Virus record (IMG/VR): IMGVR_UViG_3300020043_001414
Location: 1 to 30,870 of that record
Length of the DNA: 30,870 bases
Origin: a virus
Lineage: Duplodnaviria > Caudoviricetes
Direction: 5' to 3' (one strand)
Shown piece by piece: positions 90 to 28,874 of the stretch. The notes beneath the pieces were generated by a model, which worked only from the letters and a program-made list of their open reading frames with translations, was not told where the DNA came from and searched no databases. Position numbers and translations under genes: made by a program. Positions within the stretch are counted from its first letter, which is position 1, and the number at the start of each line of letters is the position of its first letter.

Positions 90-165
90 TCTTTTATTAC
101 CTTGTTGTCTTTACTTACCTGATCTGTTTTGACAGATTATTCGTTTTTCTGTCTTAAAACTGGGA

Positions 166-385
166 TAAGTGTTACCCTACTTTTCATGGGTAACACTTAC
201 GGTAACACTTAAAACCTGCATTGTAAGTGGTTTAAATGCAGGTTTTGCTTCAAAGTGTTACTGGAAGCACGGTGTTACCCTACTTTTGCATTTTTTAATT
301 TTACAATAAAACATTTTTATTTTTTTCTATTTCTACTTGTATTATTACAGCGTAATACAAGAAAACACGGTAACACCGTGCTTCC
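166..385. repeat. Putative replication origin: GTGTTAC/GTAACAC heptamers, nested inverted repeats and an AT-rich core
   Basis: Heptamer at 169, 190, 202, 255, 272 and 370. 12-bp IRs 166-177/188-199 and 211-222/235-246. 17-bp IR 263-279/369-385 flanks the AT-rich 288-345 tract. 16-bp direct repeat 169-184/272-287. Lies immediately downstream of the helicase gene. Confidence 0.7.
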
Positions 386-395
386 TTGCTTCCTA

Positions 396-2216
396 TCAGT
401 CCTCGTCACTCTCGAACAAGTCCTCATCGTCATCAACATCGCCTTTGACGCCAAATACCAATTCATCTTCTTTAATCAAGTCTTGGCCTGCCGCAACACT
501 ACCAGTATAAGCAGTATTACTAACCAAGGTCCAATCAAAACTCTTGTCAGTCCAGGCTTTGTTTGCGGCTGGACGGATAACTGTGCATTGCTTTCTGGTG
601 CTGATGCTAGGACCGCTGGTAATGTAAATGTGGATTTTTTCATTTACAATGTCCAACTTGTATTGGCTTGCCAACTCATTAAGTCTAGTGTTAATGGTTT
701 TATCTTTGGTAATAAAGCCATCAATGTGGCGCATCAGTTCTTTGACAACAAAGAACGGCACACATCCACCGTTATTAACAACTGGCATGATTAAGTTGCG
801 GAAAATAGTGTCTAGGCTGTCCAATTGCTGATCCAAAAAGTAACGGTAATCTTCGCCGTGTAATGGCTTTAGCGTGTAATTTGTATCAACTTCTGGATGC
901 TTGGCCTGTAGGTGCTTGAACCAAGCACCAATGCACAATCTGTTTAACAAGTATTTGCTGACAATTTCTTCTGCAAAATCCTTGCTTTGCTCAACACTAA
1001 CTTCATGTCCCTTTAATGCAAAGTGATGGCGGATACTTTCCAAAAATGTAATGTTGGTACGAGTAATACTAAAACGACGATCAACACCACCTTCTTGACC
1101 TGCTGGTGTAAGTTTGAACGGCAGTTTGTTGTTGAACCAAGCACTGCTGTGCGTCTTTTCGCCTTCATACTGATCTTTGCCTTTGGGTTCAAAAATCATT
1201 GTGTCGCTACCAGCCAATTGTTTTACAACTTCTAGCGGGATTTCTTTTGAGTTTTGGTCATCAAAGAATACAATCAGTTTGCCCAACATGATAGCATTAA
1301 AGTTGCCGTTAAGTGTTTTCGAGTTGGCTTTGCCGCTTAAAATAGCAGGCAACATCAATCGCACGATAGCCTGAATGATACCTTTACCATTACCACCAAC
1401 ATGACCTACAACCACCAAGTCTGGTGTTGTCACTGCCTTTTTGTAGTTGATGATCTTGTGTAAAATCCAACGCTCAATGTGGTCTTGGTTTTCTTTTTTG
1501 CCACCACTTAAACTATACATCAACCAGTCAAAATACTCTAGACCGTTCATTGCCATTTCCTCTTTGTCCTGTGGGATTTGGATGCGATCAATAAAGTATT
1601 GTTCCATGTGCTTGATTGGCAAATACACTTTGTCTTGTTGCCACAAACTAGGATCAATACTATAGCGTTTCAATTGGAATGTGCGGTTTTTGTTATTGAA
1701 CAAATCTACAACACGATAGTCTGGCAAGTGCCATGACTTTAAATGCAATTCGTTTGCCAACAACTTAATAAACTGCTTGGCAGGCATATTGCGAACTTGC
1801 ACGTTTTGCTTTTCTGGAATACTGCTGTAATCGTCAATAAACAAAAACTCATCGTCAGCAATAATGTAAGCCACACTTGGATCATTGTCCAAGTATTGTT
1901 GTGCAACTACATTTAGTGCGGCTTGGATTTTTTCTTCGTTTTCGTCATCCCTGGTGCGACTTAAACTTTTTAAATCTATTTCGTATTCTACCAGGTTAGC
2001 CGTTAGATTTTCAATCTCTTTCAACTTGTCTGCGTAGCGTTGCTTTTTGTCTGAGACAACTTCAATGTCAAGTTTTTCGATTTTGCGTAAATCTTTATTG
2101 GCCTGTGTAATCAGTTGCTTTTGCGCGGCAATATTTTTTAAAATAGTTTCTTTTGCCGCATTTAATTGTTCTACTGGATCAGTGCCAGTTGTTTCTAAAT
2201 CGTCTATTCGTAACAT
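396..2216 (-). CDS. SF3 (D5/NrS-1-like, DUF5906-type) replicative helicase with an N-terminal coiled coil
   Basis: Walker A-like VVVGHVGGNGKG, Walker B LIVFFDD, EPKGKD segment, motif C-like WFNN, DRRF arginine finger. SD AAGGA upstream. Confidence 0.85.
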   Translation of the reverse strand: MLRIDDLETTGTDPVEQLNAAKETILKNIAAQKQLITQANKDLRKIEKLDIEVVSDKKQRYADKLKEIENLTANLVEYEIDLKSLSRTRDDENEEKIQAALNVVAQQYLDNDPSVAYIIADDEFLFIDDYSSIPEKQNVQVRNMPAKQFIKLLANELHLKSWHLPDYRVVDLFNNKNRTFQLKRYSIDPSLWQQDKVYLPIKHMEQYFIDRIQIPQDKEEMAMNGLEYFDWLMYSLSGGKKENQDHIERWILHKIINYKKAVTTPDLVVVGHVGGNGKGIIQAIVRLMLPAILSGKANSKTLNGNFNAIMLGKLIVFFDDQNSKEIPLEVVKQLAGSDTMIFEPKGKDQYEGEKTHSSAWFNNKLPFKLTPAGQEGGVDRRFSITRTNITFLESIRHHFALKGHEVSVEQSKDFAEEIVSKYLLNRLCIGAWFKHLQAKHPEVDTNYTLKPLHGEDYRYFLDQQLDSLDTIFRNLIMPVVNNGGCVPFFVVKELMRHIDGFITKDKTINTRLNELASQYKLDIVNEKIHIYITSGPSISTRKQCTVIRPAANKAWTDKSFDWTLVSNTAYTGSVAAGQDLIKEDELVFGVKGDVDDDEDLFESDED

Positions 2217-2225
2217 ATTATTTCC

Positions 2226-3158
2226 TTATTTCATTACATATTTGTTAAAGATTGCTTCGCGTTCTTGTTTCCAATTGGCTTGATCTCGTAAGCAATCCTT
2301 GCCGTGTCGTTCTTTTAGCAAGTGTATAACACTTCCCATTGTCACTGGCTTACCAACTTGACCACCATCGTTCCAAACCTTTGCGGCATCGCTTGCACTC
2401 TTTTTGCTCATCATGCCAGTTGTAACATACTGAAAGTCAGCAACTGTAAAGCCACCTGCTTTTAAACCCCAACCAACATTACGCCAAATAGGATAACTGC
2501 CCACATAAGTTTGCTTTAGCAAGTCAAGTATGCGTTGCTTTTGTGCGTCATCAAGTTGGATAGCAGGACCGTTGTAGTTTGTCATTGCGCTTGCCATTTC
2601 AGCATCTTCTGCTTCCACAATTTCAACCAGGTTTTGCACAATCGAACCAGGTAGCACCAGGTTTCTACATTCTTTTAATTGGCAGTTGATATTGCCGTAA
2701 AACAAACGCACAGGATCAACACACGCTGTATCGCCTGCTGGAAATACTTTTAACAAACCACGAATGATTTTGCGACAACGACTTGCATCTGTTTCTGGTT
2801 GCTCCAGCACAAAACAAATGCGAAATTTGTGATGATCTGGTTGGAAACTGTGCGTGGCATAAAAGCCAGCACCGTATGCTTCGTAAAACGGGTGTTGCAA
2901 TAACTCTGGTATTGTTAGTGTGTTGGGATTTTTGTTTGTATCGTTATCTACATCTACCATCAGTAGTTGTCTGCTTACAAACTCTGAGCCAATGCGATGA
3001 TCGTTTTGTAGTTCTGCACTATTGGCATAACCATCAACGGTGATTAGTTCAAACGCTTCAGCCCAATTTACATCAATATTAACCCAACCTCGTCCCATTG
3101 CCTGTAATGCATTGGGCGCAGTTGATTTACCTTGTGTATAATGAATACTAAGTTTCAT
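2226..3158 (-). CDS. Primase: AEP/prim-pol-like N-terminus plus C-terminal PriCT-2-like domain
   Basis: LMVDVD, ATHS..H.KFR and ACVDPVRLFYG motifs. C-terminal SYPIWRNVGWGLK...W...TMGSVIHL is PriCT-2-like. Start moved to ATG 3158 because of SD AAAGGA. Confidence 0.8.
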   Translation of the reverse strand: MKLSIHYTQGKSTAPNALQAMGRGWVNIDVNWAEAFELITVDGYANSAELQNDHRIGSEFVSRQLLMVDVDNDTNKNPNTLTIPELLQHPFYEAYGAGFYATHSFQPDHHKFRICFVLEQPETDASRCRKIIRGLLKVFPAGDTACVDPVRLFYGNINCQLKECRNLVLPGSIVQNLVEIVEAEDAEMASAMTNYNGPAIQLDDAQKQRILDLLKQTYVGSYPIWRNVGWGLKAGGFTVADFQYVTTGMMSKKSASDAAKVWNDGGQVGKPVTMGSVIHLLKERHGKDCLRDQANWKQEREAIFNKYVMK

Positions 3159-3334: not shown

Positions 3335-3341
3335 TATTTAG
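3335..3341 (-). promoter_or_regulatory. T4-late-like promoter motif CTAAATA upstream of the primase-helicase operon
   Basis: Intergenic copy of the recurring motif, oriented toward the primase. Confidence 0.6.
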
Positions 3342-3349: not shown

Positions 3350-3535
3350 TTATGGCGTGTTGTCCAAATCATACAATTTTCGCCACAAATTGGCAACAAT
3401 ACGGCTATCTCGTTTGTCCAAAACAGCCTCTCGTATGATTCTGCGTAGTCGTGTGTATTGTAATGTGGGTTGTTTGGTGTTGTTTAGGATCACTAGTTCG
3501 TGATGTAGTTGGGTTATCCAATCAGTTTTCGCCAT
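3350..3535 (-). CDS. Hypothetical protein, 61 aa
   Basis: ORF on the major strand in a small-gene region. Confidence 0.5.
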   Translation of the reverse strand: MAKTDWITQLHHELVILNNTKQPTLQYTRLRRIIREAVLDKRDSRIVANLWRKLYDLDNTP

Positions 3536-3617: not shown

Positions 3618-3694
3618 TACTTATGACCTCACAAAAACGCATTTTGCCAAACGCACGACTTTTGGTTTCTGCGTGATTACTCAAGTCATAAGTA
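3618..3694. promoter_or_regulatory. Divergent promoter pair, both reading GTCATAAGTA
   Basis: Identical 10-mer at 3618-3627 (-) and 3685-3694 (+), each pointing to an ORF. Confidence 0.6.
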
Positions 3695-3730: not shown

Positions 3731-3937
3731 ATGGGAAAGCAAAGAATTGAAGTTTATGTATCGTTTGAAATTGATTTTGACGACACTGCCGCAGACGATG
3801 ATGAAATCCTCACACAAAACGAAAATCGTGTGCGAGCCGCATTTAGTGATGCTTGCGATGTGCTGGACGCTGACGCAGTTGGCACTACTATTACAACTAC
3901 CAGTTTGGTCATCAACGGCGAAACTTGGGATGTATAA
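3731..3937 (+). CDS. Small acidic hypothetical protein, 68 aa
   Basis: SD AAAGGA, upstream ATAAGTA motif, 16 D/E versus 4 K/R. Confidence 0.7.
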   Translation: MGKQRIEVYVSFEIDFDDTAADDDEILTQNENRVRAAFSDACDVLDADAVGTTITTTSLVINGETWDV

Positions 3938-3940
3938 ATA
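3933..3940 (+). promoter_or_regulatory. Perfect T4 late promoter consensus TATAAATA
   Basis: Exact 8-mer overlapping the stop codon of 3731..3937, followed by an ORF-less structured region. Confidence 0.6.
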
Positions 3941-3945
3941 AAGTT

Positions 3946-4044
3946 ATAAAACAAACGGTTCTTTTATGTAATAGCATTTGGGTTCCTCCCCGTTTGTTTT
4001 TAGCCCTGAGGTTTTTATTAGGCCATTTTCCTCAGGGCTTTTTT
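3946..4044 (+). ncRNA. Candidate two-hairpin small RNA ending in an intrinsic terminator
   Basis: Stem 1 is 3948-3958/3990-4000 (11 bp, 31-nt loop). Stem 2 is 4002-4011/4030-4039 (10 bp, 18-nt loop) followed by a T-run. Promoter motif directly upstream. Confidence 0.55.
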
Positions 4045-4321
4045 ACGGCAGTATGCGAAGTGGTTGCATAACTGCCACACTAAATGCATCAGTGTTGTGA
4101 GCCTCATTCAACCTGCGTGCCAATGCAATAGCATGTCCTGGTTCTGGGAACATGCTTTTATTATACTTGTAACCTTGATAAAGTGCCGCAGGATTTATAC
4201 TGCGTAACTTCACAGGTCTGCCATTAAACAGCACAGCATATACAGCATCTGCTTCACACACTTCGATCATACGATCACCTTGTGCATGCGAGCAGATCAA
4301 GGTTGGTTGGGGTCTTGACAT
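4043..4321 (-). CDS. Conserved phage hypothetical protein, 92 aa (MSRPQP...PGHAIALARRLN)
   Basis: Clean ORF coupled to the upstream gene. From memory it resembles a family seen in large aquatic T4-like phages (not verified). Confidence 0.75.
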   Translation of the reverse strand: MSRPQPTLICSHAQGDRMIEVCEADAVYAVLFNGRPVKLRSINPAALYQGYKYNKSMFPEPGHAIALARRLNEAHNTDAFSVAVMQPLRILP

Positions 4322-5025
4322 TTAATGTTTCCAAATTTTTTGTATAGGTAAGCAGGCGTTGTGTTAAACTGTATGGCAATTTCTTTAACAGGAACACCAG
4401 CCCGTTTTGCGGCCACAATAGCATCAACATCTAAGTGTGGCTTACGAGCACCCAACACCACACCGTTGCGCCACTTTTTAGCAACATACGCAATGTTTGG
4501 TTCTGGGAATCCCAACTGCTTGCCAATCTCTGTTGTAGTCTTGCCTGCATCCAACAACTTATAAACCACAGCATGGTCTAATTGGCGGCGAACTCGTAGC
4601 CCTTCAGTTGCGGCACGCATGCTTTCATTGGTTGGTCGTTTCCACCAAACATACGCCGCACCATGAGCAGTGTAAGTTTTCAACCAGTTCATAACTTCGT
4701 GCATAGGCACTGCGGCACATAACCCCAATGCTGGCACATAGTTTTTCTTGTTTGATCCTATCATTCTGTGAGCAGGAGGAATTTCAAACCAGCGAAATAA
4801 CTCGCGGTGCATACCAGTCACAGGCAAACCATAACCATCTGGTTGTTTATACCAAATGCCTGCCACACTTATCTCATGTGGTGTAATTGTTCCGTGTTGG
4901 AATGTGGTGTCATCCAGGGTTTGAGCATCAAGTGCTCGACGTAACCAGGCTCTAGGACTGCCTAGCGGCCCAGTGACACCATATTCTGTATTAGTTTTTG
5001 TATTAGTCCAAACATCTTCTTGCAT
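4297..5025 (-). CDS. Putative DNA-binding protein with two C-terminal helix-turn-helix repeats
   Basis: LLDAGKTTTEIGKQLGFPEPNIAYV and AKRAGVPVKEIAIQFNTTPAYLYK are HTH-like. ATG lies 5 nt after ATAAGTA. Confidence 0.7.
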   Translation of the reverse strand: MQEDVWTNTKTNTEYGVTGPLGSPRAWLRRALDAQTLDDTTFQHGTITPHEISVAGIWYKQPDGYGLPVTGMHRELFRWFEIPPAHRMIGSNKKNYVPALGLCAAVPMHEVMNWLKTYTAHGAAYVWWKRPTNESMRAATEGLRVRRQLDHAVVYKLLDAGKTTTEIGKQLGFPEPNIAYVAKKWRNGVVLGARKPHLDVDAIVAAKRAGVPVKEIAIQFNTTPAYLYKKFGNIKCQDPNQP

Positions 5026-5030: not shown

Positions 5031-5037
5031 TACTTAT
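5031..5037 (-). promoter_or_regulatory. Late-like promoter motif ATAAGTA flanked by TGCATGCA palindromes
   Basis: TGCATGCA at 5021-5028 and 5037-5044, ATG at 5025. Confidence 0.55.
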
Positions 5038-5057: not shown

Positions 5058-5345
5058 TTACTTGAGATGTGTGATTACATAACCCAGCATTGCCAACAAA
5101 CTTACAATGATTGTGGCAGTGGCAGTAATCATTACCTTGAACTTTTCATCCTTGGCATTGGTCAGCATGTTTTTAATTTCACCTGTGCTTTTGGCAGTGG
5201 CTTCTTTGAGTTCCTTAACATCTTGCGATATTGAATCCATGCGTTGTTCAATATTATCCATGCGTATCTCAATTCCTTTGTATCTCTCAGCACATAAAAT
5301 TTCGTGGGTGTTTAATCTTGCTTCCGTAGCATCAATTTGCGACAT
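5058..5345 (-). CDS. Coiled-coil protein with one C-terminal transmembrane helix (XhlA/holin-like)
   Basis: HEILCAERY start, heptad-rich middle, hydrophobic VMITATATIIVSLLAMLGYVI tail. Follows the tail fibre. Confidence 0.65.
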   Translation of the reverse strand: MSQIDATEARLNTHEILCAERYKGIEIRMDNIEQRMDSISQDVKELKEATAKSTGEIKNMLTNAKDEKFKVMITATATIIVSLLAMLGYVITHLK

Positions 5346-5539: not shown

Positions 5540-8500
5540 TTATGCACCTACTGGTGTTAATGTAGTGATGACTGATGCTGTGCTTGGTGCAAATGCTGTA
5601 GCCGCATAGAACGGGAATGTGATGTTTAAATCTTCAACAGCATACGCAATTTCCCAATAATCAGTAGTGTTGGCACTTGTAACCAAGTAGTTCCAACCAC
5701 TAATAGTTCCTACACTCTTAGCCACTGTAACACGACCTGTTGATCCAACAACATCTACACCATTTTTACGCAACCAAATGTAAGCAACATGGTCCTGACC
5801 AGTATCAGCGTTATTAACTTGAACACTGAACTGCAAGTTGTATCTACCAGCGGCACCTGCAATCAATCTGCTTGTGCTACCAACTGTGGCAATGTTGTTT
5901 GTTGCCGCTGTGCCCAACGGGAACACTGCGGCTGTGTTAATTGCGGCTGGTGTAATAGTTGTGTTGTATTCAAACTGACCAAAAACACGGTTGTAGTTAA
6001 TGTTATTGCCAGTTACGCCAACGCCAGTGTTACCATAGGCACCAGTGTTAAATGTAAAACTGTTGCTACGGAATGTAGCAGCCGCAGGACTGATATCTAC
6101 AATTTCCAAACGGTTTTGTAAGTTGGCAGGAGTAGCCAATGGAAACGCACGAATTCTAAATGCCGCGCCCATGTAAGCAGTTAAACAACTGAATGTCTGA
6201 GCACCAGCAACAGTAGGCGCAACAGTGTGCGGAACACCCAAACTAAATGTTGCTGTAGTTGGTGTGCCCCAAACTGGGTATGTGCCATCAGTGACGTTGG
6301 TGATACCAGTAACTGTAACTAAAGCACCACGACCAAACGGAACGTTAGTCAAACCAGTTGTAGTAAATGATATACTGCATCGTATTAGTGTCAAACCAGT
6401 TAATGTGCCAGCAGTAGTTGTAATTGGGCTACCACCAGGAGTTGCACTTAGAGTGGCAAAACTGTTGGTTCCGTTGTTGCTATACACAATCATGTAGTAA
6501 GTCTGACCACTTACAATACCCGTAGCAGTGCCAGTTAGTGTGCCTGTAACACGAACAGCCTGACCAACAGCGCCACTTGTGCCTGAATATTGAATTTGAC
6601 CCTTGGTGCCAACTACAGTAGGAGTGCCCATTGTAGCACGGAAACTTGAAGCAATCGCAGTCACATTGGTTGAGTTTAGTGTTAAAGTAGAATCACTAAA
6701 GTTTTCCGCCGCATAACTTTGAACTTGCATTGTTTGCAAGGCATTGATACCACCACCTTGATATTGTGTTGCAAGGTCGTTAGCAAAGCCAGTGGTTGCA
6801 TAACCAGAGAAGTTTTGTGTGCCCATAACGTTGCCAGTGCCAATAGCACTTGGAGCAACACTAGTTAAACCAGTAAATGGGATTGTATCGCCAGTTGAAC
6901 TGTTACCGTTGGCATTACGGAATGTAAAACCAGGAGCAGTTGCAGTTCCAGCAAGTGTGTCACCGTAATAGTGCGTGTAACTCATAGAAGCACCATAACC
7001 GTTTGTGCCTGCTGGGAAACTTGAAGCCGCACTGTAGCCGTTGTTGTCTGTAACTGTGTTTAGTGTTTGTGGCGGGAACACATAGTTCAAGTTTGTGCTG
7101 GCTTGCATTTCACCTTGTAGGCGAGTATTTTCACTTAGAACAATGGCACCAGTGCCATTTGCGGCAAGAACCAAATCACCGTTTGTGTTTGTAGTAGTAA
7201 TTGTATTGTCTGTTGCAACACCAACAGAGATGTTACCAGCACTAATGCCAGCAAAACTTGGGCTATCACCTGTGCCAACACTTTGTCCAATTGCAACTGA
7301 GATTTCGTTTGCACTTGTTTGTGTTACACTTACACCTGTGCCTTGAGCAATCTTAACTGTGTCAGTGCTTGCGTCTGAACCAACAAGGTTCAAGTTTGCA
7401 CCACCAGTTGTAGAACTTGCATCAATGGTGTAAGTTGTGTTTGTATCAACGGCGTTGATAGTCATTGTGTTTGCATCAGTGGCAACCACTGTTACATTAG
7501 TGCCACCAGCAAACTTAACGCTATCAGTTGTAGCATCACTACCAACAAGGTTCAAGTTAGCACCACCTGTTGTAGAACTTACATCTTGAGTATATGTTGT
7601 GTTTGTATCTGTGCTGGAAATTGTAATTTCATTTGCACTTGTTTGTGATACGGTTGTAGCACCACTGCCACTGAATTTAACAGTGTCAGTAGTAGCATCG
7701 CTACCTACCAAGTTCAAGTTCGCACCACCTGTTGTAGCACTTGCGTCTTGAGTGTAAGTTACCACAGTTGGCAACACACTATTGACATAACCAACAGTTG
7801 TCAGGTCATCAGTGTTAAACGGACCAAACGGATTGATAGTTGCGTAAGTGCCTCCCAATGGGGCTGTATTAACGAAACTTACACCACCGTTGGCATTGAC
7901 AGTGCCAGTTGTAAGGCTGTTGGTTGTTACACCGTTGAACTGCACATTGTCTGTTGTGCCAACTGCTTGACCAATTGCAACAGTGGCTGTGTTGGCATCT
8001 GTGTAACTTACGGTCACACCTGTGCCATCAGCAAATTTAACTGTGTCAGTTGTTGAATCACTACCAACCAAGTTTAAGTTGGTGCCACCAGTTGTGCTAC
8101 TGAAGTTTTGAGTATATGTTGTATTTGTGTCTGGCGCATTGATTGTAATTGTGTTGGCATCTGTAGCCACTACAGTCACATTGGTGCCACCAGCAAATTT
8201 GATGGTATCTGTAGTCGCGTCTGATCCTACCAAGTTTAAATTGGCACCACCAGTTGTAGCACTAGAATCAATTGTGTAAGTTATATTGGCAGGAAGTGCA
8301 TCAACATAAGCCTTGGTTGTTAGGTCTAACGGATTTGTAGGTCCGCTTGGATTTACAGTTGCGTAGGTTGTGATGTTATCAACAAATGAAACTACAGTTC
8401 CACTTGCACCTAGAACACCTGCTGTATATTTGCCTGTTTGAATACGCAAGTCTGTGGTTGCGGCACCACGAGCACTGATGTTAATAAACTTGCCGTTGTC

Positions 8501-19292: not shown

Positions 19293-19475
19293 TTATTCCT
19301 GTAGTTCAATTAAGGTTGAGATAAAGTGCTCAAGGTCAGTTGCATCCAACACCAGTGTAAAGTGGCTTACACCAGTATCTTCATCAGTGCGAATCAAACG
19401 CAGAAAGATATCATCACCATGACGAGTTACTTCTGCATCAACACGACTGGTTGCATGTTTGGTCAAATTAATCAT
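19293..19475 (-). CDS. Hypothetical protein, 60 aa (MINLTKHATS...)
   Basis: ATG at 19475 with AAGGA SD, overlapping the upstream stop region. Confidence 0.65.
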   Translation of the reverse strand: MINLTKHATSRVDAEVTRHGDDIFLRLIRTDEDTGVSHFTLVLDATDLEHFISTLIELQE

Positions 19476-19770
19476 GGCTAATATCCTTGTGAATTTCATA
19501 AACTGCATGTAAAGCACAGGCAAGACTTTCAATCTCAGCGGCTGTGGCTGTCCAAGTTTCTGGGTCACTCAGTTGGGCTGGTTTGTTGGTCATGACTGCT
19601 TGCAGGCGTTCAGCAATTAAACGCAGGATGTGCTCGCACTGTCCTGGAAACTTTTGCACAAATGCTTCACGATGTGCATGATTGACCTTTTGTAAAATGA
19701 GCGTATCACGAGTCATACGCTCTTGTTGTGCTTGGTCAATCATCGTGTCACGGATGATTGGATCAGTCAT
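19468..19770 (-). CDS. Hypothetical protein, 100 aa
   Basis: TAATG coupling with the upstream gene. Confidence 0.75.
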   Translation of the reverse strand: MTDPIIRDTMIDQAQQERMTRDTLILQKVNHAHREAFVQKFPGQCEHILRLIAERLQAVMTNKPAQLSDPETWTATAAEIESLACALHAVYEIHKDISHD

Positions 19771-20594
19771 TATTGAGAAATATCCCAGGGATTGTGCGCC
19801 ACTGAATCGTTTAGTGTGATAAATTCACGGTCAATCCAAGTAGCCCATTGGTTGCTTTTATTGACTTTAAATGTTTGCATCATAGCACGCAGGCGTTTGC
19901 CTTGAGGTGTTAAAGTTCCATCTTCACGCTGAATAACTTGTTCGCCACTGCGAGGATCAACCCACTTGATAACTTCTGGTCTAGTGCGACCAAACTTGTC
20001 AATCTTTTCACCATGTGGGCGTTGCTCAAGAGGACCAAGAATTTCATAAGAAATCATGCCGTTGCTGTATTTGCGGAACAACATGCTGACCTTTTTATCT
20101 TGTGCTCGTGCTTCTTCATCTGGATGTGGAATAACGTTGCTTAGGAATACATTTTGCACTTGCTTGCGGTCTGGCAAACTTGCCGCACGAGTTGGAGGTT
20201 CTTTGAGTGATTCAACTGGCACTAATTCTGTGCGGTCAATGTATGGGTTTTCATTACCAATAAATTTAGCATCAACTGGGACACCGTTAAGTGCATCCAT
20301 AGCCACTTGATACTTTAACTTGTTGGCACGACCTTTTAAACTTAGCACAATGCCAGTTTCGTCATATACAAATCGTTCTAGGTCAGTTGCTGTTGGAAAG
20401 TCTGTCATTAGACCTTCTAAATCATATTCACCTGCATTGACTGCGGCAGGTTGCACAGGCGCAGGAATGTCTAGCACTTCTTTGGCTACGGCATCTGATC
20501 GTGTGCGTTTTGTTGGAGTTTTTGCAACTGGTTCTGGTGTTGCGGTGTCGTCCCAAGGATTTTCGTTGGGCGTGTTTGATTTTTGCATGTTCAT
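19770..20594 (-). CDS. Hypothetical protein, 274 aa
   Basis: SD AAAGGA, downstream of CTAAATA at 20648-20654. Confidence 0.8.
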   Translation of the reverse strand: MNMQKSNTPNENPWDDTATPEPVAKTPTKRTRSDAVAKEVLDIPAPVQPAAVNAGEYDLEGLMTDFPTATDLERFVYDETGIVLSLKGRANKLKYQVAMDALNGVPVDAKFIGNENPYIDRTELVPVESLKEPPTRAASLPDRKQVQNVFLSNVIPHPDEEARAQDKKVSMLFRKYSNGMISYEILGPLEQRPHGEKIDKFGRTRPEVIKWVDPRSGEQVIQREDGTLTPQGKRLRAMMQTFKVNKSNQWATWIDREFITLNDSVAHNPWDISQ

Positions 20595-21471: not shown

Positions 21472-21794
21472 TATGCGTTTCCTTTTGTTGGTCCGCGACC
21501 ATAGTTAAAACTTTCTTTGCCAGTTTTTGGCATTTCTTTTGTGCCGCCTGGAGTGCGAACTTGTGGATTGTGGCAACCCATAGTCATCTCTTTACCAGCA
21601 TGCGTTTTAGGCATGGCACTGGTTCCAGGAGTTTTGTCATTGCTGGTATTGCCAACAGTAGGACCACGACCCTTGTTGATTAGTGCGTCAGAGTTTGTTT
21701 TCTGGTAGTGGTTGCCAGTTAATCTGTCAGCACCGCGACTGAAGCCTTCGCCTGCTCCACCGTAAATGGCTTTGTAGCCGTTAGATTCTTTCAT
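21471..21794 (-). CDS. Small basic disordered protein, 107 aa
   Basis: ATGA coupling, SD AAAGGA, carries RGPTVGN and RGPTKGN. Confidence 0.75.
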   Translation of the reverse strand: MKESNGYKAIYGGAGEGFSRGADRLTGNHYQKTNSDALINKGRGPTVGNTSNDKTPGTSAMPKTHAGKEMTMGCHNPQVRTPGGTKEMPKTGKESFNYGRGPTKGNA

Positions 21795-21958
21795 TTTGAT
21801 TTTCCTTTTTTTGCAGTTTTGGCTGCTTGTTTAAAAGCCTTGGCGGTTGGAGCACCTTTTGCGCCTGCTTTACGCATACGCTCTCCTGAGCCTGCGGCAA
21901 TTCTATCGCGTTTTGCCGCAATATTGGCATACAAGCCAGGTTTCTTCTTTTCCGTCAT
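21791..21958 (-). CDS. Very basic 55-aa protein (MTEKKKPGLYANIAAKRDRIAAGSGERMRKAGAKGAPTAKAFKQAAKTAKKGKSK), below the ORF-track cutoff
   Basis: Translated by hand. Fills the gap exactly, ATG 4 nt after CTAAATA, TGA overlaps the next ATG. Confidence 0.85.
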   Translation of the reverse strand: MTEKKKPGLYANIAAKRDRIAAGSGERMRKAGAKGAPTAKAFKQAAKTAKKGKSK

Positions 21959-21961
21959 GCT

Positions 21962-22318
21962 TTATTTAGCCTCAGGATTAACGCCTACAAGTCGTGCTAG
22001 TGCTTCTGCAAATGCCGCCTGTTTTGCTTCAATAGCATCTTTGCTATCTGTAATTTCGATCTTTGCCATGTTGGTCATAACTTTGTTCAAGATTAAGTTA
22101 TGATACTTTAGGGTGGTTTGAGTATCGTTGTTCATACGGGCTTCTAAAAAGTCCTCAACTAAAATGTCCTCATAATCACGACCACCACTTTTGGCTTCCA
22201 GTGCTTCAAGCAATTGCTTGATGCTGATATTTTCACGGGCACCTTTGGGGCGACCTGCTCCTGGTCTTGCGCCTCCACGACCTCCGTTTGGCTTTGCTTT
22301 TTGTTTGTTCTTTTCCAT
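21962..22318 (-). CDS. Probable terminase small subunit
   Basis: N-terminal GGRGGARPGAGRPKG motif common in TerS, helical body, first gene of the unit leading to TerL. Confidence 0.6.
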   Translation of the reverse strand: MEKNKQKAKPNGGRGGARPGAGRPKGARENISIKQLLEALEAKSGGRDYEDILVEDFLEARMNNDTQTTLKYHNLILNKVMTNMAKIEITDSKDAIEAKQAAFAEALARLVGVNPEAK

Positions 22319-22380: not shown

Positions 22381-22869
22381 ATGATAGAATACACTTGGCA
22401 ACTTGCCACAGGACTTGACGTTCCTGATATCGTTAAAATGGCTCAAACTCATTTTCAAAACGAGATTGATACTGTTTTCACTCCTGATCCTGTGGCATAT
22501 AGCCGCAATATCACCTTTGCTGTGGTAAATCAATTCTACCTTCCTGGCAGCGACTTACTCACAGTTGCAAGAGATGCTAGTGGCAAACTCTTGGCATACA
22601 ATTGGGCAAAAAGTAATGATCGTGCCGCATGGAGTGACGACAATATGGTTGTCATTCGCATGGTGCATGTTGATCTACAACTTGCCACTCGTGATCGCTT
22701 ACGAATAATCACTGATATGATGAACCAGTGGGAGCAATTTGCTCGTGCCACTAACAATCCCATCATCTGCTCAACGACCATGCGTAAAGACCAAGATGCC
22801 TTTTTAAAACTGCACTCGCGCAACGGTTATGATGTGCGAGGCAGTTATGCTTACAAACGATTAACTTAA
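22381..22869 (+). CDS. GNAT-fold acyltransferase-like protein, 162 aa
   Basis: WQLAT.LDVPDIV.MA start, LLTVARD..GKLLAY, and C-terminal FLKLHSRNGY in a motif B-like position. SD AAAGGA. Confidence 0.65.
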   Translation: MIEYTWQLATGLDVPDIVKMAQTHFQNEIDTVFTPDPVAYSRNITFAVVNQFYLPGSDLLTVARDASGKLLAYNWAKSNDRAAWSDDNMVVIRMVHVDLQLATRDRLRIITDMMNQWEQFARATNNPIICSTTMRKDQDAFLKLHSRNGYDVRGSYAYKRLT

Positions 22870-23292
22870 AGTTGAACGCAACTGCCAGATTTGTTTAGCA
22901 ATAGCCAATATACGATCTTGTGCGTAGTTGGCTATTTCTTCATGTTCTTCTTCATCTGCCACTTCGTTCAGTTCAATGTAACACTGTTTTAAATGTTCCA
23001 AATCTTCTAAAACCATGCTCAACAATTCCTCAGCATCACCTTCTGCTGGCATGGGTTTAATATGGCTACCATCTACTATGTCAAACATGTCTGCTGGCAT
23101 AAACGCATCCAGGGTGCGTAGCAATTCACCAATCACATCAATTTGTGATTGCAGTGATTCGTAAATGCCGCCCAATAACTCATGGTCACTGGTAAAGTTT
23201 CTGCCTGTGATATTAACATGGCTCACATGACTACGGAAATAAGCCACGAAATTGTCATTAAAGACTTGGGTTAGTTGTTGTATTGTTTTCAT
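22861..23292 (-). CDS. dps: Dps/ferritin-like protein
   Basis: SHVNITGRNFTSDHELLGGIY...IDVIGELLR matches Dps HWNV.G..F..LH...Y...D..AER, with a C-terminal KQIWQLRS. Confidence 0.85.
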   Translation of the reverse strand: MKTIQQLTQVFNDNFVAYFRSHVSHVNITGRNFTSDHELLGGIYESLQSQIDVIGELLRTLDAFMPADMFDIVDGSHIKPMPAEGDAEELLSMVLEDLEHLKQCYIELNEVADEEEHEEIANYAQDRILAIAKQIWQLRSTLS

Positions 23293-23297: not shown

Positions 23298-25697
23298 TTA
23301 TTTACCTTTTTTCTTCTTGGCTTGTTTGGCTTGCCATTCCGCATTTATTTTTGCATAATCAATTTCCACGGGCTTGCCCATCTTTTTTTCAACTTCAGCC
23401 TGATGGCGTTTGATCTTGGTGCTTTCTGGCACTGCATCAACACCTTTAAATGTTTCGCGCATCTCTACCATGCTGGGTTTTGGATCAGCCGCAGTCCAAT
23501 CATCACCAATAGGAACTCGTTTGCCAGTTTTTGCATCTGTGGCAAATATATGAGTCTTGGTCATAAACGGAGCAATCTGTTGTGAGTGCATGATCTTATT
23601 ACCTTGTGGGTAAGTGCCCACAGTTGGCACACCTGCCAACACATCAAATGATTGTTGTTCCAAAAAGTCTTGCTTGCTACTAAATGTGTGTGCTGGTTCT
23701 GCACTCATCATTTCCATTGAACCGCCACGCAACTTTTTCATGCGTTCTTGTGCGGCTTTGACAGCGGCGGCTTCTTCTGTGGGATTGATTGGTTGAATAT
23801 TTTTATTGGCTTCTTCCATGGCCTTGATTTGACCACGGATACCACCAGTGCGAGCATCTAAGCCCAAATCATTGGCTTCAGTTTTGATCTGCTTATACAT
23901 CCAATCAGTCATGGCACTCTTGCCTTCGCCAAAGCCCATTTTACTAATGTCTGGTGCAGATTTCCAATCCAACATAACACCTGCGTCAGCCGCAAATTCA
24001 TCAAACACACTGTTATCAACAATGTTTGAGTTTTTGTATCGTCTAATACCAGTGTTGGTAGTTGTTTTAATCATGTCCTTGACAACAGCCGCATCAGTCA
24101 TGGTATCTGATTTTAAACCTTGACGGAACAAGTAATCTGATCGTTCAGCAGGTGACATTCTGGCTAGGCGTTCTGCTTCTGTGCCGCGACCCAAGTTTTC
24201 TGCTGTGCCAGCAAATGTTTCTTTATTCTGAGCACGAGTTTCTTCCAAACCAGCACGATGCTGATTGATCTTGTCAGGGAAACTTGCACGATTTGCAGCC
24301 AAATCAATTGGAGGTGGCGGTGCATCGCCTGCCGTTTCAAATATGCCTGCACCTTTTTTACCACTGCGTGCTTGAATCTGAGCAAGGATTTGTTCAGGTG
24401 TAAGTTTTTGACCCAACACGCTTTCAGTTGCAGGTGCTGTTGCTACTGCTGGAGCAGGAGTTGGTGTAATAGTTTCAGGCGCAACAGGACGAACAGGTTG
24501 TGGTGCAACTTGTTGAGGTCCAGTTGGTTGAACACGGCTTGTATCAATTTCGTAAGGTAAGTTGAAACTTTCACCTTCAATATTCACACGACGACCTGGA
24601 CCGCCCATAGGAATGGTTTGAGGTGTTGGTGTTGGTGAATAACCCAACTGTGGTTGCACAGGAGTAATTCGTTGTGCGGCGGCTTCACGAATAGGTTGTG
24701 GGATATCACTTGGCTTTACTGCGCCAGTTGCAACAAATGGATTACCACCCTGATTTAATATTGTTTGTTGTTCTGGTGATAATGATTTAAAACCTTTGCT
24801 TGCCAAGTATGCATCTGCGGCACCTTGTGCTAAACCTAATGCACCGCGCATACCAGTTAAAACAGGAATACCACCTGTTAAAAACATACTACCAACGTCA
24901 GCGGCGGCAGTATATGGATTGCTGTATGTTTCACCAATTCGCTCACCAAATGCACGCATTGCTTGACCAGCCGCAGGAATTTCACCGCCACTTAACGCAA
25001 GCACAGGAGCAGGTGCTAATTCACTAATAGGGCGAACAGCACCTTGGCTCATTGGCAATCCTGCTTCTAATCTTGCCATTTCAGCGGCTGGAATAAAAGT
25101 GTCGCCTAATGGAATACGGCTACTTGGAACTTGATAACCAGTTGGTGTTTCTCCTGGCTTGGCAATGTAACCTGTGGCTCTACCTGCCGCACCTTTAACA
25201 ACATCAACTGGTGCTTTTGCAACTGCTTTTGCCGCACCTGCAACTTTAGGAACTGCTGGACCTGCGGCAATAGTAGCAGTGTTAAACATGTTAGCAACAT
25301 CAGCCTCTGGTAATCCAGTTGTTTGTGCAATAGGTTGAATCACACTGCCTTGCAAACCTTCGCCAATGGCTGTGCCAAGTTGTCTTAACGGTGCTTGTTC
25401 ATAACCTTGTGTGCCAGTAACACCAAACGCACGACCAAACACATCTTTTGGACTGGTTGTTTCTGCTGTTGCTTGCTCTGGACTACGACCTGCGGCACGA
25501 GCCAAAGCATACGCACCGTAATCTAAGGTGCCTGTTACTGCATTTAAAGCAGAGTCAGCCAGACTAGCACTACTACGCCCAAAGGTTTGTAGTGCTGATT
25601 CTGGTTGCGTCTTTTTAAGATAAGCATCAGGGTCAAAACCAGACTTCTTTTTCTTATCTTCTTTATTCAGATATGCATCTGGATCGAACTCTGCCAT
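23298..25697 (-). CDS. Internal virion / DNA ejection protein, 799 aa
   Basis: Tandem FDPDAYL N-terminal motifs, Ala/Gly-rich amphipathic segments, last gene of the ejection cluster. Confidence 0.7.
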   Translation of the reverse strand: MAEFDPDAYLNKEDKKKKSGFDPDAYLKKTQPESALQTFGRSSASLADSALNAVTGTLDYGAYALARAAGRSPEQATAETTSPKDVFGRAFGVTGTQGYEQAPLRQLGTAIGEGLQGSVIQPIAQTTGLPEADVANMFNTATIAAGPAVPKVAGAAKAVAKAPVDVVKGAAGRATGYIAKPGETPTGYQVPSSRIPLGDTFIPAAEMARLEAGLPMSQGAVRPISELAPAPVLALSGGEIPAAGQAMRAFGERIGETYSNPYTAAADVGSMFLTGGIPVLTGMRGALGLAQGAADAYLASKGFKSLSPEQQTILNQGGNPFVATGAVKPSDIPQPIREAAAQRITPVQPQLGYSPTPTPQTIPMGGPGRRVNIEGESFNLPYEIDTSRVQPTGPQQVAPQPVRPVAPETITPTPAPAVATAPATESVLGQKLTPEQILAQIQARSGKKGAGIFETAGDAPPPPIDLAANRASFPDKINQHRAGLEETRAQNKETFAGTAENLGRGTEAERLARMSPAERSDYLFRQGLKSDTMTDAAVVKDMIKTTTNTGIRRYKNSNIVDNSVFDEFAADAGVMLDWKSAPDISKMGFGEGKSAMTDWMYKQIKTEANDLGLDARTGGIRGQIKAMEEANKNIQPINPTEEAAAVKAAQERMKKLRGGSMEMMSAEPAHTFSSKQDFLEQQSFDVLAGVPTVGTYPQGNKIMHSQQIAPFMTKTHIFATDAKTGKRVPIGDDWTAADPKPSMVEMRETFKGVDAVPESTKIKRHQAEVEKKMGKPVEIDYAKINAEWQAKQAKKKKGK

Positions 25698-25699
25698 GT

Positions 25700-28105
25700 T
25701 TATAATCCTAATCGTTGTTTAATTTGTTTGGCTCTTGGGTCATCAGGGTTATTGCGTGCCCACTCAAGTGCCTGTGTATCTTCTTTACTTAACTTCTTGA
25801 CAGGTTCTTGTTTTGCAATTTCACTGGCTGGCTTTGTGCCATACTTTGGTTCTTGACCAAGTTTAACACGGTTACGATCAATACCACGTTGGATAATTTC
25901 GTTGAACTCTTGTGCGGCAGTTTTAAATTCTTTTTCGCTTTGACTTGTGCTCATGCGTTGAATAGCCTTGGTTGCACTTTCACCTTCAAGGTTACTTAGG
26001 GCACCCATACCACGCAAGTTTTCAATTGCTTGCAAGAAACTTTGACCACCAATTTCTTTAAATCTGGCTTGGAAGTCAGACGCATCAGTGCCTTCAAGGA
26101 TAGGTTCTTTGGTTAAACCAAAGCCATAACTTAAACCTTTACGACCAACTGAGGTTTCAAATCCAGGATGTGTAACAAGTTCATTGATCTTGGTAATCAA
26201 GTAATCAGCATTTTGTTCTGCTTTACCTTGGTTAGCACGAGTAGTTCCAATGTCTTTACCAACAACTTCTGCTGATTCTTTGGCAATGGTCTTACCTGCT
26301 TCAAGTTCCGTCATTGTTGGACGAGCACCTGTAGGAGCACCAGCAGGAGCAACGCGACCTTGTGGGGCTTGTGCCAATGGAACTGGAGCAACAGGCGCAC
26401 CACGAGCAGGTGCAGGAGCAGCCGCAGGTTGTGGAGCAACAGGTTGAGGAGCAACAGCACCAGCAGGTTGCGCGGCAGGCGCAGGCGCACCACCAGCAAT
26501 TTGTGGCACAGCAATATTAACTTCACTTGGCTGAACAGGAACGAAACCTTGACCAACAAGTGCTTTGTTATAGTCACGCAGGATAGCCATTTGTTCTTCA
26601 ACGCCTTTGCCTTGCAATTTAAGGTTGATTTCTTGAATCTGACGAGCACGCATGTCTGCCAATCCACCAGTGCTAGACTGCGGACGGAAACCTGTCATTG
26701 GCTTACGACCTGTATCAGTTTGGACATAACTTTGACCAGTTCGCTTGTCTGTTACAACACGACCAACTTCACCAGTTTTGTCATTGATGTAAGTGCCGCC
26801 TGGAATATCTAATTCACGCTTGCCACCAGTTGCAAAACTTGCAAGTTGTTCTTGAGTTAATTCTCTGTTGTCTGCACTGATACCTTTTAGTGGCAATCCT
26901 TTGGCATTGACTTGAATTAAGGCTGTTTCGCCCTTTTCATTTGACACACTTTGCCACTTGTTACCAAATCCCAACTTAATTGCTTCTTCACCAGCAAGTT
27001 CTGGGCTTAGGAAACCAAGCAAAATCATTTTAACCCATGAGCCTTCTTGATTCTTTAATTCATCAGCAATAGCACGACCTGCCTTGGGATCACCTTGAGC
27101 CGCTGCCGCAATTGCTTGAGTTGCTTGCTCTTTGGCACTGTTCATTTTAAATTCTTGCTCTAACAATGCACGAGCCTGTTGTTTAGCAACAGTTTGCATT
27201 GCTGGAAACTGTGCGAACTCAGGTTGCTTGCTGATCTCCATCCACTTGAACGGGTCTTTGCCTGCTTCTTCAAACAAACGATTACGAAACTCTGGTGTAT
27301 CACGAGGTTCCATACCACCAGCCATCATGGGACGATTGTTTGGACCCAATATTGTAGTTGTGCCATCTGCATTGGTGATTAAACGATTGCCTTCTTCATC
27401 AATTTGCATGCGTGGTTGTGCCGCACTTTGAGCCGCCATTGCTTGAGGAGCAACTGGTGCTGTTGGTGCCGCAGGTGGAGTAATTGTTGGAGCGCCACGG
27501 CGTTGAGCATCTGTTAATGTTCCTGCTTGAGCACTTGGAATAATTGCATCAAACACTTTGCTAAGATAACCTTGAGTTTCACGAGGCAACTGTGCAGGAT
27601 TCAATTGACCAGCATTGGCGGCAATGTTTTTATCAACACGACCTGGACCTGCATTGTAGGCTGCGGCGGCTGCGCGTTCATCACCGTTATACTTTTTCAA
27701 CAGTGCTTGGTAATATTCTTGACCAACACGATTATATTCTTCTGGAGTTTGTGCCTGTGCTGGACGAACACCAAAACCTGGTGATGCAGCCGTTGCTGGC
27801 ATTACTTGATTTGCAAACATCGCACCTTTTGGGCTTGTTAAAGGGCGTCCTTGTGCATCAAAGTCACGACCACCACTTTCAGCCTGTTGCATGCGTGCAA
27901 AAGTTTCTGGACTCACTGGACCAGCCGCAGGGATTTCTTCCTTGACAGTGCGAGTTTGACTACCATCACCGTATGTGGTGACTTCTTGTTTTGTTTTTAC
28001 TTCTGAGGCCAAACGCTTACGGCGTTCTTCTTCAGTTTCGTAAGCGAAAGGGTCAGTCGCTTCAATATCTGGACCCACATAATTTCCAAATGCATCATAT
28101 GCCAT
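25700..28105 (-). CDS. Internal virion protein with an N-terminal lytic transglycosylase (SLT-like) domain
   Basis: QAESGG (catalytic Glu), SPKGAM..NQVMPATA, AAAAYNAGPGRV, LPRETQGY. Confidence 0.9.
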   Translation of the reverse strand: MAYDAFGNYVGPDIEATDPFAYETEEERRKRLASEVKTKQEVTTYGDGSQTRTVKEEIPAAGPVSPETFARMQQAESGGRDFDAQGRPLTSPKGAMFANQVMPATAASPGFGVRPAQAQTPEEYNRVGQEYYQALLKKYNGDERAAAAAYNAGPGRVDKNIAANAGQLNPAQLPRETQGYLSKVFDAIIPSAQAGTLTDAQRRGAPTITPPAAPTAPVAPQAMAAQSAAQPRMQIDEEGNRLITNADGTTTILGPNNRPMMAGGMEPRDTPEFRNRLFEEAGKDPFKWMEISKQPEFAQFPAMQTVAKQQARALLEQEFKMNSAKEQATQAIAAAAQGDPKAGRAIADELKNQEGSWVKMILLGFLSPELAGEEAIKLGFGNKWQSVSNEKGETALIQVNAKGLPLKGISADNRELTQEQLASFATGGKRELDIPGGTYINDKTGEVGRVVTDKRTGQSYVQTDTGRKPMTGFRPQSSTGGLADMRARQIQEINLKLQGKGVEEQMAILRDYNKALVGQGFVPVQPSEVNIAVPQIAGGAPAPAAQPAGAVAPQPVAPQPAAAPAPARGAPVAPVPLAQAPQGRVAPAGAPTGARPTMTELEAGKTIAKESAEVVGKDIGTTRANQGKAEQNADYLITKINELVTHPGFETSVGRKGLSYGFGLTKEPILEGTDASDFQARFKEIGGQSFLQAIENLRGMGALSNLEGESATKAIQRMSTSQSEKEFKTAAQEFNEIIQRGIDRNRVKLGQEPKYGTKPASEIAKQEPVKKLSKEDTQALEWARNNPDDPRAKQIKQRLGL

Positions 28106-28117
28106 AATTTTTATTCC

Positions 28118-28849
28118 TTATTTTCCAATCTTGGTCCCAGGATAAGACAATTCAAAACCAGTCTTATCAACTGTGGTGCCAGTCGTCCCACGGAAATCTG
28201 GCGTGTATGTGCCTTGTGGTGTGCCGTATAAGATACTTGCGTATTGTGAATACAAATCTTGCGGAGTCTTTGCCGCACTAACACCTGCACCAGCCGCACC
28301 AAGTGCTTGACCAAGACCACCTTGACCAAGTTGTGCCAACTGTGAAGCCGCACTTAATCTTTGACTTGCAATGCCTTGCATGATATCGCCAGCGGCTTTC
28401 ATTTGTGCCGCTTGTGTTTGACCTGCTAGGGCACGATCAGCAAGTTTGCTACGGAATCCACCGCCAACACCTGCACCACCCATTGCTCGTTGTTGCATTT
28501 CCAAATTCTGAACATATTGTGCTTGAGCAGGTGCTAAAGCATTTTGAATCTGAATACGCTCATAGTCTGGATTGAACAGGTTTTCTAATCCACTAATACC
28601 AGTGCGTAATGCACTTTCGCCAGTTGAACCAACAACATCTTGCACTTGACGAGCAACGCCTGCTTGGTTTTGTGCCGCATTATTCACACCTGGAGCATAA
28701 CGATTCCAAATTTCTGTTGCACCGCCTGTAGCATTTTTATATGCTGGGATGATTGTGCCAGTTAGCATTTCTGTGGTAGCCGCAATTTGAGCACGTTGCT
28801 CTGGTGTTGTAATTGGGGCTGTGCTAGTTGAACTTTTACCAAAACTCAT
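28118..28849 (-). CDS. DNA ejection / pilot protein, 243 aa
   Basis: MSFGKSSTST start, Gln/Ala/Gly-rich helices, position in the ejection cluster. Confidence 0.7.
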   Translation of the reverse strand: MSFGKSSTSTAPITTPEQRAQIAATTEMLTGTIIPAYKNATGGATEIWNRYAPGVNNAAQNQAGVARQVQDVVGSTGESALRTGISGLENLFNPDYERIQIQNALAPAQAQYVQNLEMQQRAMGGAGVGGGFRSKLADRALAGQTQAAQMKAAGDIMQGIASQRLSAASQLAQLGQGGLGQALGAAGAGVSAAKTPQDLYSQYASILYGTPQGTYTPDFRGTTGTTVDKTGFELSYPGTKIGK

Positions 28850-28867
28850 AATATTTTTCCTTGTCTG

Positions 28868-28874
28868 TATTTAG
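28868..28874 (-). promoter_or_regulatory. Late-like promoter motif CTAAATA for the ejection-protein operon
   Basis: Intergenic, independent of the upstream stop, followed by SD AAGGA and ATG. Confidence 0.65.

Follow-up and report, generated by a model that had tools for sequence, protein, structure and literature searches.

Late-type promoter boxes in a family of freshwater podoviruses suggest transcriptional dependence on jumbo phages with a long gp55

We analysed IMGVR_UViG_3300020043_001414, an entire linear virus record of 30,870 bases with a completeness of ~86% (hereafter, the window), together with its relatives. The window is a partial genome of one member of a common family of 33–40-kb freshwater podoviruses, and TAA(A/G)TA boxes stand before many of its genes. 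At the level of sequence comparison, it is solid that the motif exists and has the properties of a promoter. On balance, the family is probably a virion-forming satellite that depends for its transcription on a co-infecting jumbo phage, its boxes being read by host RNA polymerase (RNAP) together with the long form of the sigma factor gp55 encoded by that phage. We infer dependence on a helper because the boxes lack a detectable reader of their own, while gene and promoter links point to gp55-bearing large phages. The initial annotation of the window had proposed a virophage-like satellite of a large T4-like phage. Promoter geometry, an own virion, the lack of a reader and the links to gp55 phages agree with that proposal, but a T4-like helper and the dependence of all expression on the helper are not supported.

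All 16 (C/A/G)TAA(A/G)TA sites that had been listed at gene boundaries were confirmed in position and strand; the window contains 21 copies of this pattern, and the five unlisted ones are intragenic. TAARTA was present within 60 nucleotides (nt) upstream of 12 out of 30 window genes on the sense strand, compared with two on the antisense strand. Dinucleotide shuffles yielded a mean of 2.25 genes with a box, and 0 out of 5000 reached 12. With the last codon and stop codon of the upstream gene and the Shine-Dalgarno sequence (SD) held fixed, the mean was 4.15 and 4 out of 5000 shuffles reached 12. A stop codon overlapped 5 out of 16 listed window sites; among the relatives' sites at 10–12 nt from an ATG, 110 out of 147 were free of any stop codon, and an explanation by AAA-TAA context fails for this reason. 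Thus, the enrichment of the motif upstream of genes persisted once AT content and stop context were controlled.

Capsid relatives of the window numbered 586 in IMG/VR, the best 80 being 85–94% identical, and freshwater runs were the main source of near-identical sequence. Near-complete relatives measured 33–40 kb. Terminal repeats closed G505 and nine relatives of the first set, making ten closed family genomes altogether. About 5 kb are absent from the window, comprising a tail-block stretch and a small-gene region, and because its own genome is incomplete, the window alone leaves room for a hidden factor of its own. At the right end, a 93%-identical contig added ~0.9 kb, in which a GNAT gene and one of the conserved genes of the tail block are found. 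Recognisable window genes specify a capsid and a portal of SU10 type, the large terminase, a Dps-like protein and an HNH nuclease, an internal virion protein with an SLT domain, and a primase together with a helicase. Genes for the head, fibre-like genes and conserved genes of the tail block were found in all 14 whole family genomes or the extending contig. With head, packaging and tail genes of its own, the family would build its own virion, as had been annotated. Replication modules varied among members (at least three types), and recognised primase or helicase families were missing in 3 out of 14 family genomes (G008 and the closed genomes G010 and G011). The integrase family PF00589 was detected in 0 out of 17 near-complete records, 0 out of 16 closed small genomes and nowhere in the window; it was found in a separate provirus, G510. 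A host assignment based on capsid matches in two contigs of metagenome-assembled genomes was dropped, as these contigs may be mis-binned.

We then measured the distance from box to first ATG in 15 whole genomes (the 14 family members and a siphovirus, G023). In all, 46 sites lay at exactly 11 nt, with 0–7 at each other distance between 6 and 21 nt, and control hexamers similar to the box gave no 11-nt peak. An SD accompanied 0 out of 46 sites at 9–13 nt from the ATG versus 64 out of 112 sites at least 20 nt away. Six window genes have a box 10–12 nt before the ATG and no SD. The T4 late octamer TATAAATA begins at −13 (PMC2988020), which puts the start of TAAATA at −11 and the A of the ATG at +1. 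Judged from geometry, the family sites have the TAAATA core of a T4-type late promoter at −11 to −6 without a conserved −35 element; in the 6 nt upstream of the box, nothing was conserved except A or C at −12. The full TATAAATA octamer was not retained, with T at −13 in 14 out of 136 family sites, and three jumbo phages were likewise relaxed (9 out of 49). Thus, the T4-late geometry attributed to the boxes is borne out by the 11-nt peak before SD-less ATGs, and because of this geometry many box-driven mRNAs are probably leaderless.

The sister clade, that of MW202484, has a capsid 60% identical to that of the family and the same gene order. We compared 80 of its loci with 80 family loci; the capsid and o92 comparisons used the best 80 loci and the long-gp55 comparison likewise 80 loci, and loci within a clade are kin, so that locus counts are non-independent trials. 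A site at 10–12 nt was present in 66 out of 80 family loci versus 0 out of 80 sister loci, and a box preceded 382 out of 1,232 family genes (31%) versus 54 out of 1,276 sister genes (4%). Orthologs of the conserved gene o193 had the box in 76 out of 76 family loci versus 0 out of 80 sister loci, and portal orthologs in 74 out of 75 versus 3 out of 64. Within the family, 31 out of 32 orthologs of a gene resembling the small terminase subunit gene (TerS-like) had it. For capsid genes, the counts were 8 out of 80 in the family and 11 out of 80 in the sister clade. TATAAT was enriched upstream of sister-clade genes with no matching peak in the family, and a closed sister genome carried cro, ERF, SSB and RusA genes, none of which appears in the family gene lists. 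These SU10-type podoviruses are therefore like the family in capsid, portal, terminase and gene order but unlike it in promoters and in this gene set.

We found no reader of the boxes encoded by the family itself. Scans of 32 window open reading frames (ORFs) against Pfam and PHROG gave no match to a sigma factor, an RNAP or an integrase. The gp55 profiles phrog_12791 and phrog_234 matched 0 out of 22 near-complete family records (nine closed) and 0 out of 21 partial records including the window, whereas the same two profiles matched G023 and three jumbo-phage fragments; the near-complete family records thus differ from G023-type autonomous small phages, which have a gp55-like sigma of their own. 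In another 29 small records, the long-gp55 profile phrog_12791 again matched none. When 30 long gp55 proteins were combined into a profile and searched unfiltered against 17,182 six-frame segments, only G023 (E = 3e-128) and the T4 gp55 control (E = 8e-10) were recovered, the next match having E = 0.42. Single-subunit RNAP was found in 0 out of 19 records in a search that had no positive control, and multisubunit RNAP was not seen in general scans, for which no dedicated profile was run and the relatives' proteins above 480 amino acids (aa) were mostly unscanned. In profile comparisons, the conserved proteins o274, o100 and o193 did not resemble long gp55. The box-less sister clade has o274 and o193 as well, and the 15 whole genomes compared had no non-structural gene family common to all. 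The lack of a visible gp55, sigma factor or RNAP, initially noted from the window, thus extended to closed relatives in searches with profile hidden Markov models, given the missing positive control for RNAP.

A candidate reader was identified in G023, a 41-kb siphovirus found via the window helicase that shares the primase and helicase families and the box. Its gp55-like sigma factor of 295 aa (L113:1208-2095; phrog_12791, E = 7e-63) had its best named matches in jumbo phages of the Atu_ph07, CBB/GAP32, 121Q and PA5oct groups. Long gp55 occurred in ~2,600 IMG/VR stretches, and 80 such loci displayed an 11-nt peak (29 sites), both box variants and an SD at 2 out of 46 close versus 129 out of 209 distant sites. 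Indeed, freshwater jumbo phages had the same box and register as the family. For CBB, PMC5259590 describes ATAAATA at 35 sites, upstream of structural genes, and a gene resembling that of gp55, with gp33 and gp45 undetected; neither gp33 nor gp45 was found in four jumbo fragments or G023, in a search without a positive control. The best reader is therefore likely to be, from sequence, the long gp55 of PA5oct/Atu_ph07/Rak2-type jumbo phages rather than that of T4 itself. The long-gp55 jumbo clade takes the place of the originally proposed T4-like helper with gp33 and the gp45 clamp, and we disfavoured T4 proper because the small-phage gp55 found with this promoter is of the long type; a single T4 early/middle stretch was profiled for boxes. 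We infer that a sigma factor working without a clamp would act more easily on a second genome. G023 is possibly a satellite that became independent again by capturing a sigma gene. Separately, the long-gp55 jumbo loci (L129–L208) also show TATAAT 10–12 nt before ATGs, which suggests that these sites are leaderless host-type promoters too.

T4 late transcription and that of the long-gp55 phages (CBB/GAP32/PA5oct/Atu_ph07) rely on a solitary −10-type box whose core and register are those seen in the family. By contrast, the family boxes lie on a gp55-less genome, are relaxed in the first two bases, include the TAAGTA variant, precede many apparently leaderless genes and often head the replication operon.

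Shared genes provided a second link to jumbo phages. The 92-aa window protein o92 matched 14 out of 50,697 phage records, all of them 284–490-kb jumbo phages that are also on the long-gp55 list. In IMG/VR, we identified 325 o92 loci, of which the best 80 comprised 58 with jumbo synteny, 20 in small phages and two unclassified. Long gp55 was present in 10 out of 12 large records picked from the o92 loci, including 7 out of 7 near-complete ones. The predicted fold of o92 is a confident beta-sheet plus helix, and searches by PDB sequence, Atlas family and Foldseek gave no match that would indicate its function. An o92 homolog also lies at NZ_CP067422.1:7285-7530, in a Skermanella record of 476 kb that is filed as a plasmid and may be a jumbo phage genome. 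Relatives of the window share with three jumbo phages a glycosyltransferase gene (74% at the DNA level) and fibre modules (72–88%), the latter being a weak link since the modules are possibly widespread. A Dps/ferritin-like gene was present in 14 out of 15 whole genomes and not seen in the sister-clade loci; homologs, ~29% identical, were found in 4 out of 5 jumbo records. Pooled codon usage of the family was closer to that of the jumbo phages than the sister clade's was, a comparison confounded by GC content. We also inspected spacer-like matches between the jumbo phages and the family, and the top 30 short matches resembled fibre repeats, with no spacer among them.

Promoters of the sigma70 type bear on how far the dependence reaches. 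Sigma70-like pairs in the window occurred at chance level (33 versus 34.3 and 23 versus 22.6), in keeping with the initial view that no convincing pair was visible; one pair, TTGCCA-17-TATGAT at 3396 (−), lies just upstream of the primase operon. In 10 out of 11 family genomes, the gene run that leads into the replication gene had a box 23–182 nt upstream (judged by eye; G004 is cut off). In G023, which has its own gp55, a sigma70-like pair lies directly before the primase.

Several observations count against dependence on a jumbo phage. TTGAC(A/T/C)-16/17-TA(T/C)A(A/C)T precedes small variable genes in at least G002, G004, G008, G010, G011, G017, L333 and L335–L337, all in a region partly missing from the window contig; a sigma70-like pair precedes the capsid gene in G002, G004 and G005; and a sigma70-like site lies no more than 2.5 kb upstream of a replication gene in 5 out of 11 family genomes. 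Among the promoter and gene links, position −12 holds 61 C and 58 A in the family versus 9 C and 34 A in the three jumbo phages, o92 occurs in only 8 out of 15 whole genomes, the o92 tree gives no direction of transfer, and the window's own codon usage is closer to that of the sister clade (again confounded by GC content). As to a reader, Pfam Sigma70_r2 missed the real gp55 of G023, so divergent sigma factors can escape profiles, and the predicted model of o100 has three long helices (predicted template modelling score 0.53; not compared with solved folds), which keeps a sigma-like fold possible. With genomes free of integrase, waiting for a helper or co-entry with it must be assumed. Because sigma70 promoters precede small genes, there is an early class read by the host, and helper-type control is clearest in the virion operons. 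The claim that everything is expressed only with a helper was too strong, given that relatives carry canonical promoters of the TTGACA/TATAAT type in front of small variable genes.

In the resulting model, the satellite's own virion would inject its DNA, and host sigma70 would, wherever its promoters are present, express a handful of small and variable early genes. The genome would stay unintegrated until a helper arrives, or would enter along with it. Once jumbo gp55 is made, the boxes would fire, yielding many leaderless mRNAs and turning on the replication, head, packaging and tail genes, and progeny would be assembled from the satellite's own parts at the helper's cost.

Other explanations were weighed against this model. 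An autonomous phage might make an unrecognised late-promoter factor of its own from a sigma70 early promoter and redirect host RNAP to TAA(A/G)TA. In several relatives, sigma70 promoters do precede small genes without annotation, most of the small proteins match no family, G023 is a small phage that carries its own factor, and both the true gp55 overlooked by the Pfam sigma model and the ~5 kb missing from the window leave a place for one. However, no non-structural family is common to all closed genomes, yet the box is near-universal, and the universal unknown genes sit behind boxes themselves. The genes o274 and o193 are found in the box-less clade as well, and together with o100 they are unlike long gp55 by profile, whereas o92 is mostly beta-sheet, unlike the sigma-2 domain, which is all-helical. 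We regard such a factor as unlikely. It is quite improbable that the host's own sigma factor reads the lone box and the phage merely uses it: one host trait could explain the same box in several unrelated small phage lineages, but the sixth base of the sigma70 −10 consensus TANNNT, a T, is not present in the box, the register of the box is that of gp55, and early phage promoters, where present, are ordinary TTGACA/TATAAT. Moreover, searches of 401 + 30 genomes from two bacterial orders, among which the host may not be, revealed no long gp55.

Still less probable, in our judgement, is a facultative parasite that grows alone by sigma70 read-through or antitermination and keeps the boxes as a back-up for when a jumbo phage seizes the polymerase. 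Such a lifestyle would suit the sigma70-like pairs before the capsid gene in three relatives and near replication genes in five, and obligate dependence would be costly without an integrase. In a narrow probe of one jumbo lineage (L136, one of the ~2,600 stretches) across four runs holding the window phage, it was absent from the small runs X1 and X2, present as traces in X3 and covered in X14. The chance-level sigma70-like pairs of the window, the divergent and the SD-less genes, among them the TerS-like gene and o193, that have a box only, and the sister clade's TATAAT enrichment, which has no counterpart peak in the family, speak against it. That the hexamer is a by-product of stop codons or AT-rich junctions, or a signal for translation or protein binding, is scarcely credible. 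Although stop codons do overlap five of the 16 sites listed for the window, the stop-fixed shuffles (4/5000), the 110/147 stop-free sites, the single-base 11-nt peak, the flat control hexamers, the exclusion of SD and the sister-clade control all contradict it; shuffles, peak and sister clade ruled out the stop-codon or AT-content artefact.

Boxes without a reader recurred in other small phages. Six of the small o92 loci were siphoviruses sharing the window's block of holin, helix-turn-helix (HTH) and o92 genes. The closed siphovirus genomes G483, G485, G486, G490, G492 and G494, of 23–29 kb, carry boxes at the heads of operons, though fewer (before 2–6 of 27–35 genes), and lack both gp55 and integrase; G483 has no obvious replication gene. 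The integrase-bearing provirus G510 (L490 + L491; GC 0.51; rated 56% complete) encodes SU10-type virion genes, an anti-restriction gene and an o92 homolog, shows boxes at 13 out of 50 called ORFs versus one in antisense, and has no gp55; it is a candidate jumbo-inducible prophage. More tentatively than for the podovirus family itself, we suggest a widespread, many-lineage guild of bacterial virophages, in which small but complete tailed phages (SU10-type podoviruses, siphoviruses and integrated proviruses) would have had their promoters rewired to the long-gp55 late sigma of jumbo phages, replicate only in cells that a jumbo phage has infected, trade genes with the helper and regain independence by sigma capture, as G023 may have done.

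The remaining window features are as follows, from left to right. A TAAGTA box (112..117, −) precedes an ORF running off the left end. Positions 140–385, 3′ of the helicase gene, are non-coding, contain a 24-nt inverted repeat (263–286 / 362–385) and repeated GTAACAC/GTGTTAC words, and are a possible replication origin. The helicase gene (396..2216, −) encodes an SF3-type (superfamily 3) helicase/primase-associated ATPase of 606 aa (DUF5906, E = 2e-11; PHROG DNA primase, E = 2.5e-8). Profile matches identify the adjacent gene (2226..3158, −; alternative GTG start at 3185) as that of a primase-polymerase-like protein with a PriCT-2-like domain, a homolog of which is present in 10 out of 15 whole genomes, G023 among them. 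A TAAATA box (3335..3340, −) lies 182 nt 5′ of the primase ATG, with the sigma70-like pair just upstream (3396–3368). Farther right, a TAAGTA box (3618..3623, −) is 11 nt 5′ of the ATG of a 32-codon frame and 88 nt 5′ of ORF 3350–3535; its divergent TAAGTA partner (3689..3694, +) is 42 nt 5′ of ORF 3731–3937. The sole perfect TATAAATA (3933..3940, +) is present as annotated, but not as a site oriented with a downstream unit: it overlaps the stop of ORF 3731–3937, has no plus-strand gene behind it and runs head-on to the HTH-o92 operon. Within 3933–4045 it aims at this operon across a hairpin near 4000–4040, and it could be a source of antisense RNA.

The o92 gene (4043..4321, −), homologous to a syntenic gene in long-gp55 jumbo phages, is followed by that of a 242-aa protein with two weak HTH matches (4297..5025, −), whose SD-less ATG has a TAAGTA box 11 nt 5′ (5031–5036), and by a gene for a holin-like protein with a weak match (5058..5345, −; PHROG, E = 0.002–0.005). 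A long repeat-rich protein without a family match (5540..10075, −) is probably a tail fibre, judging from its position and 162-nt repeats; the gene holds five repeats spaced 162 nt and a 300-nt duplicated module, and fibre content differs widely among relatives. An adaptor-like virion structural protein (10086..11294, −; phrog_2941, E = 5e-6) precedes the conserved gene o193 (11297..11878, −), which has a TAAATA box (11884–11889) 11 nt 5′ of its SD-less ATG. The HNH endonuclease gene (11883..12215, −) has a TAAGTA box (12220–12225) 10 nt 5′ of its ATG, and a terminator-like hairpin (12230–12254) precedes that box.

The head genes comprise the SU10-type major capsid protein (12282..13457, −; PF17236, E = 3e-35), a scaffolding protein that is probable from its position (13480..14649, −; box 14696–14701), the SU10-type portal (15088..17367, −; PF23899, E = 3e-44), which has an SD and a TAAATA box 33 nt upstream (17395–17400), and the terminase large subunit, assigned from profile matches (17668..19290, −). 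The conserved genes o100 and o274 (19468..20594, −; box 20648–20653) head the terminase operon. Upstream are o55 and a probable small terminase (21791..22318, −), which are SD-less and have boxes at 21963–21968 (10 nt) and 22325–22330 (12 nt). A GNAT-like ORF, recognised by eye and without a family match (22381..22869, +), has a divergent box (22351–22356), and the Dps/ferritin-like gene (22861..23292, −; PF00210, E = 1e-11) has a box (23299–23304) 12 nt 5′ of its SD-less ATG. The stretch 23298..28849 (−; box 28868–28873) probably encodes internal virion (ejection) proteins, one of them an SLT transglycosylase (25700–28105), and a 636-aa virion-associated protein, named from a profile match, occupies 28881..30791 (−).

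Comparison with known satellites places the family beside several systems. The virophages Mavirus, Sputnik and Guarani have their own capsid and a helper-type late promoter before most or all genes, and Mavirus has its own replication enzyme (PMC6723459). The family is like them in own capsid and helper-type late promoters, and in the functional sense it would count as a virophage, with a helper-type late promoter on most genes and no own transcription enzyme detected. Virophages are eukaryotic, however, belong to an unrelated virion lineage and rely on a helper-encoded polymerase, whereas the family would combine a helper sigma factor with host polymerase and has some host-type early promoters. 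The window falls outside Maveriviricetes, having a tailed-phage portal, a terminase, an SU10 capsid and SD sites. Among phage satellites, MiniFlayer, MulchRoom, Ando and Aci01-2-Phanie have capsid genes of their own and need a large virulent phage as helper; MiniFlayer, which is without an integrase, binds to its helper's virion (PMC10690885). The Streptomyces satellites are without replication genes, and Ando and MulchRoom are tailless (PMC10690885, PMC13587820). MiniFlayer/Mulch-type satellites share own capsid and packaging genes with the family, which differs in being larger, in its own tail block, in usually having its own primase-helicase and in the function proposed to be missing, transcription. 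The attachment of MiniFlayer to its helper is a precedent for the co-entry or waiting that our model assumes.

Satellites of the P4, phage-inducible chromosomal island (PICI, including the Staphylococcus aureus pathogenicity islands, SaPI), capsid-forming PICI (cf-PICI) and PICI-like element (PLE) types also tie expression to helper infection, but they integrate and take helper capsids or tails. With no integrase and no borrowed capsid or tail, the family is set apart from P4, PICI and PLE; the initial annotation had drawn this contrast for the structural parts. The activation of P4 late promoters by P2 Ogr is a precedent for a helper transcription factor. Activation of PLE is discussed as relief of H-NS repression rather than promoter mimicry (PMC13595925). 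Thus, the family works like a virophage but belongs neither to virophages nor to P4, PICI or PLE. We found no report of a bacterial satellite using helper gp55 promoters in the open literature, subscription papers being mostly outside this scope. The 2026 reviews consulted name no such system, and one of them poses parasites of jumbo phages as an open question (PMC13282480).

Known bacterial satellites borrow capsids, tails or replication; the family would be a bacterial satellite virus whose borrowed function is transcription. If this is true, a full-size phage that borrows only its helper's transcription switch looks autonomous to every annotation pipeline, and for that reason this common family, with its 586 capsid matches in IMG/VR, and others would have been miscounted as free lytic phages. 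Boxes for gp55 without a gp55 would be a signature for finding jumbo-phage parasites, for which the sigma factors of cultured jumbo phages offer a cheap test, and gp55-type sigma factors would be seen to work in trans, on DNA other than their own genome and with no sliding clamp.

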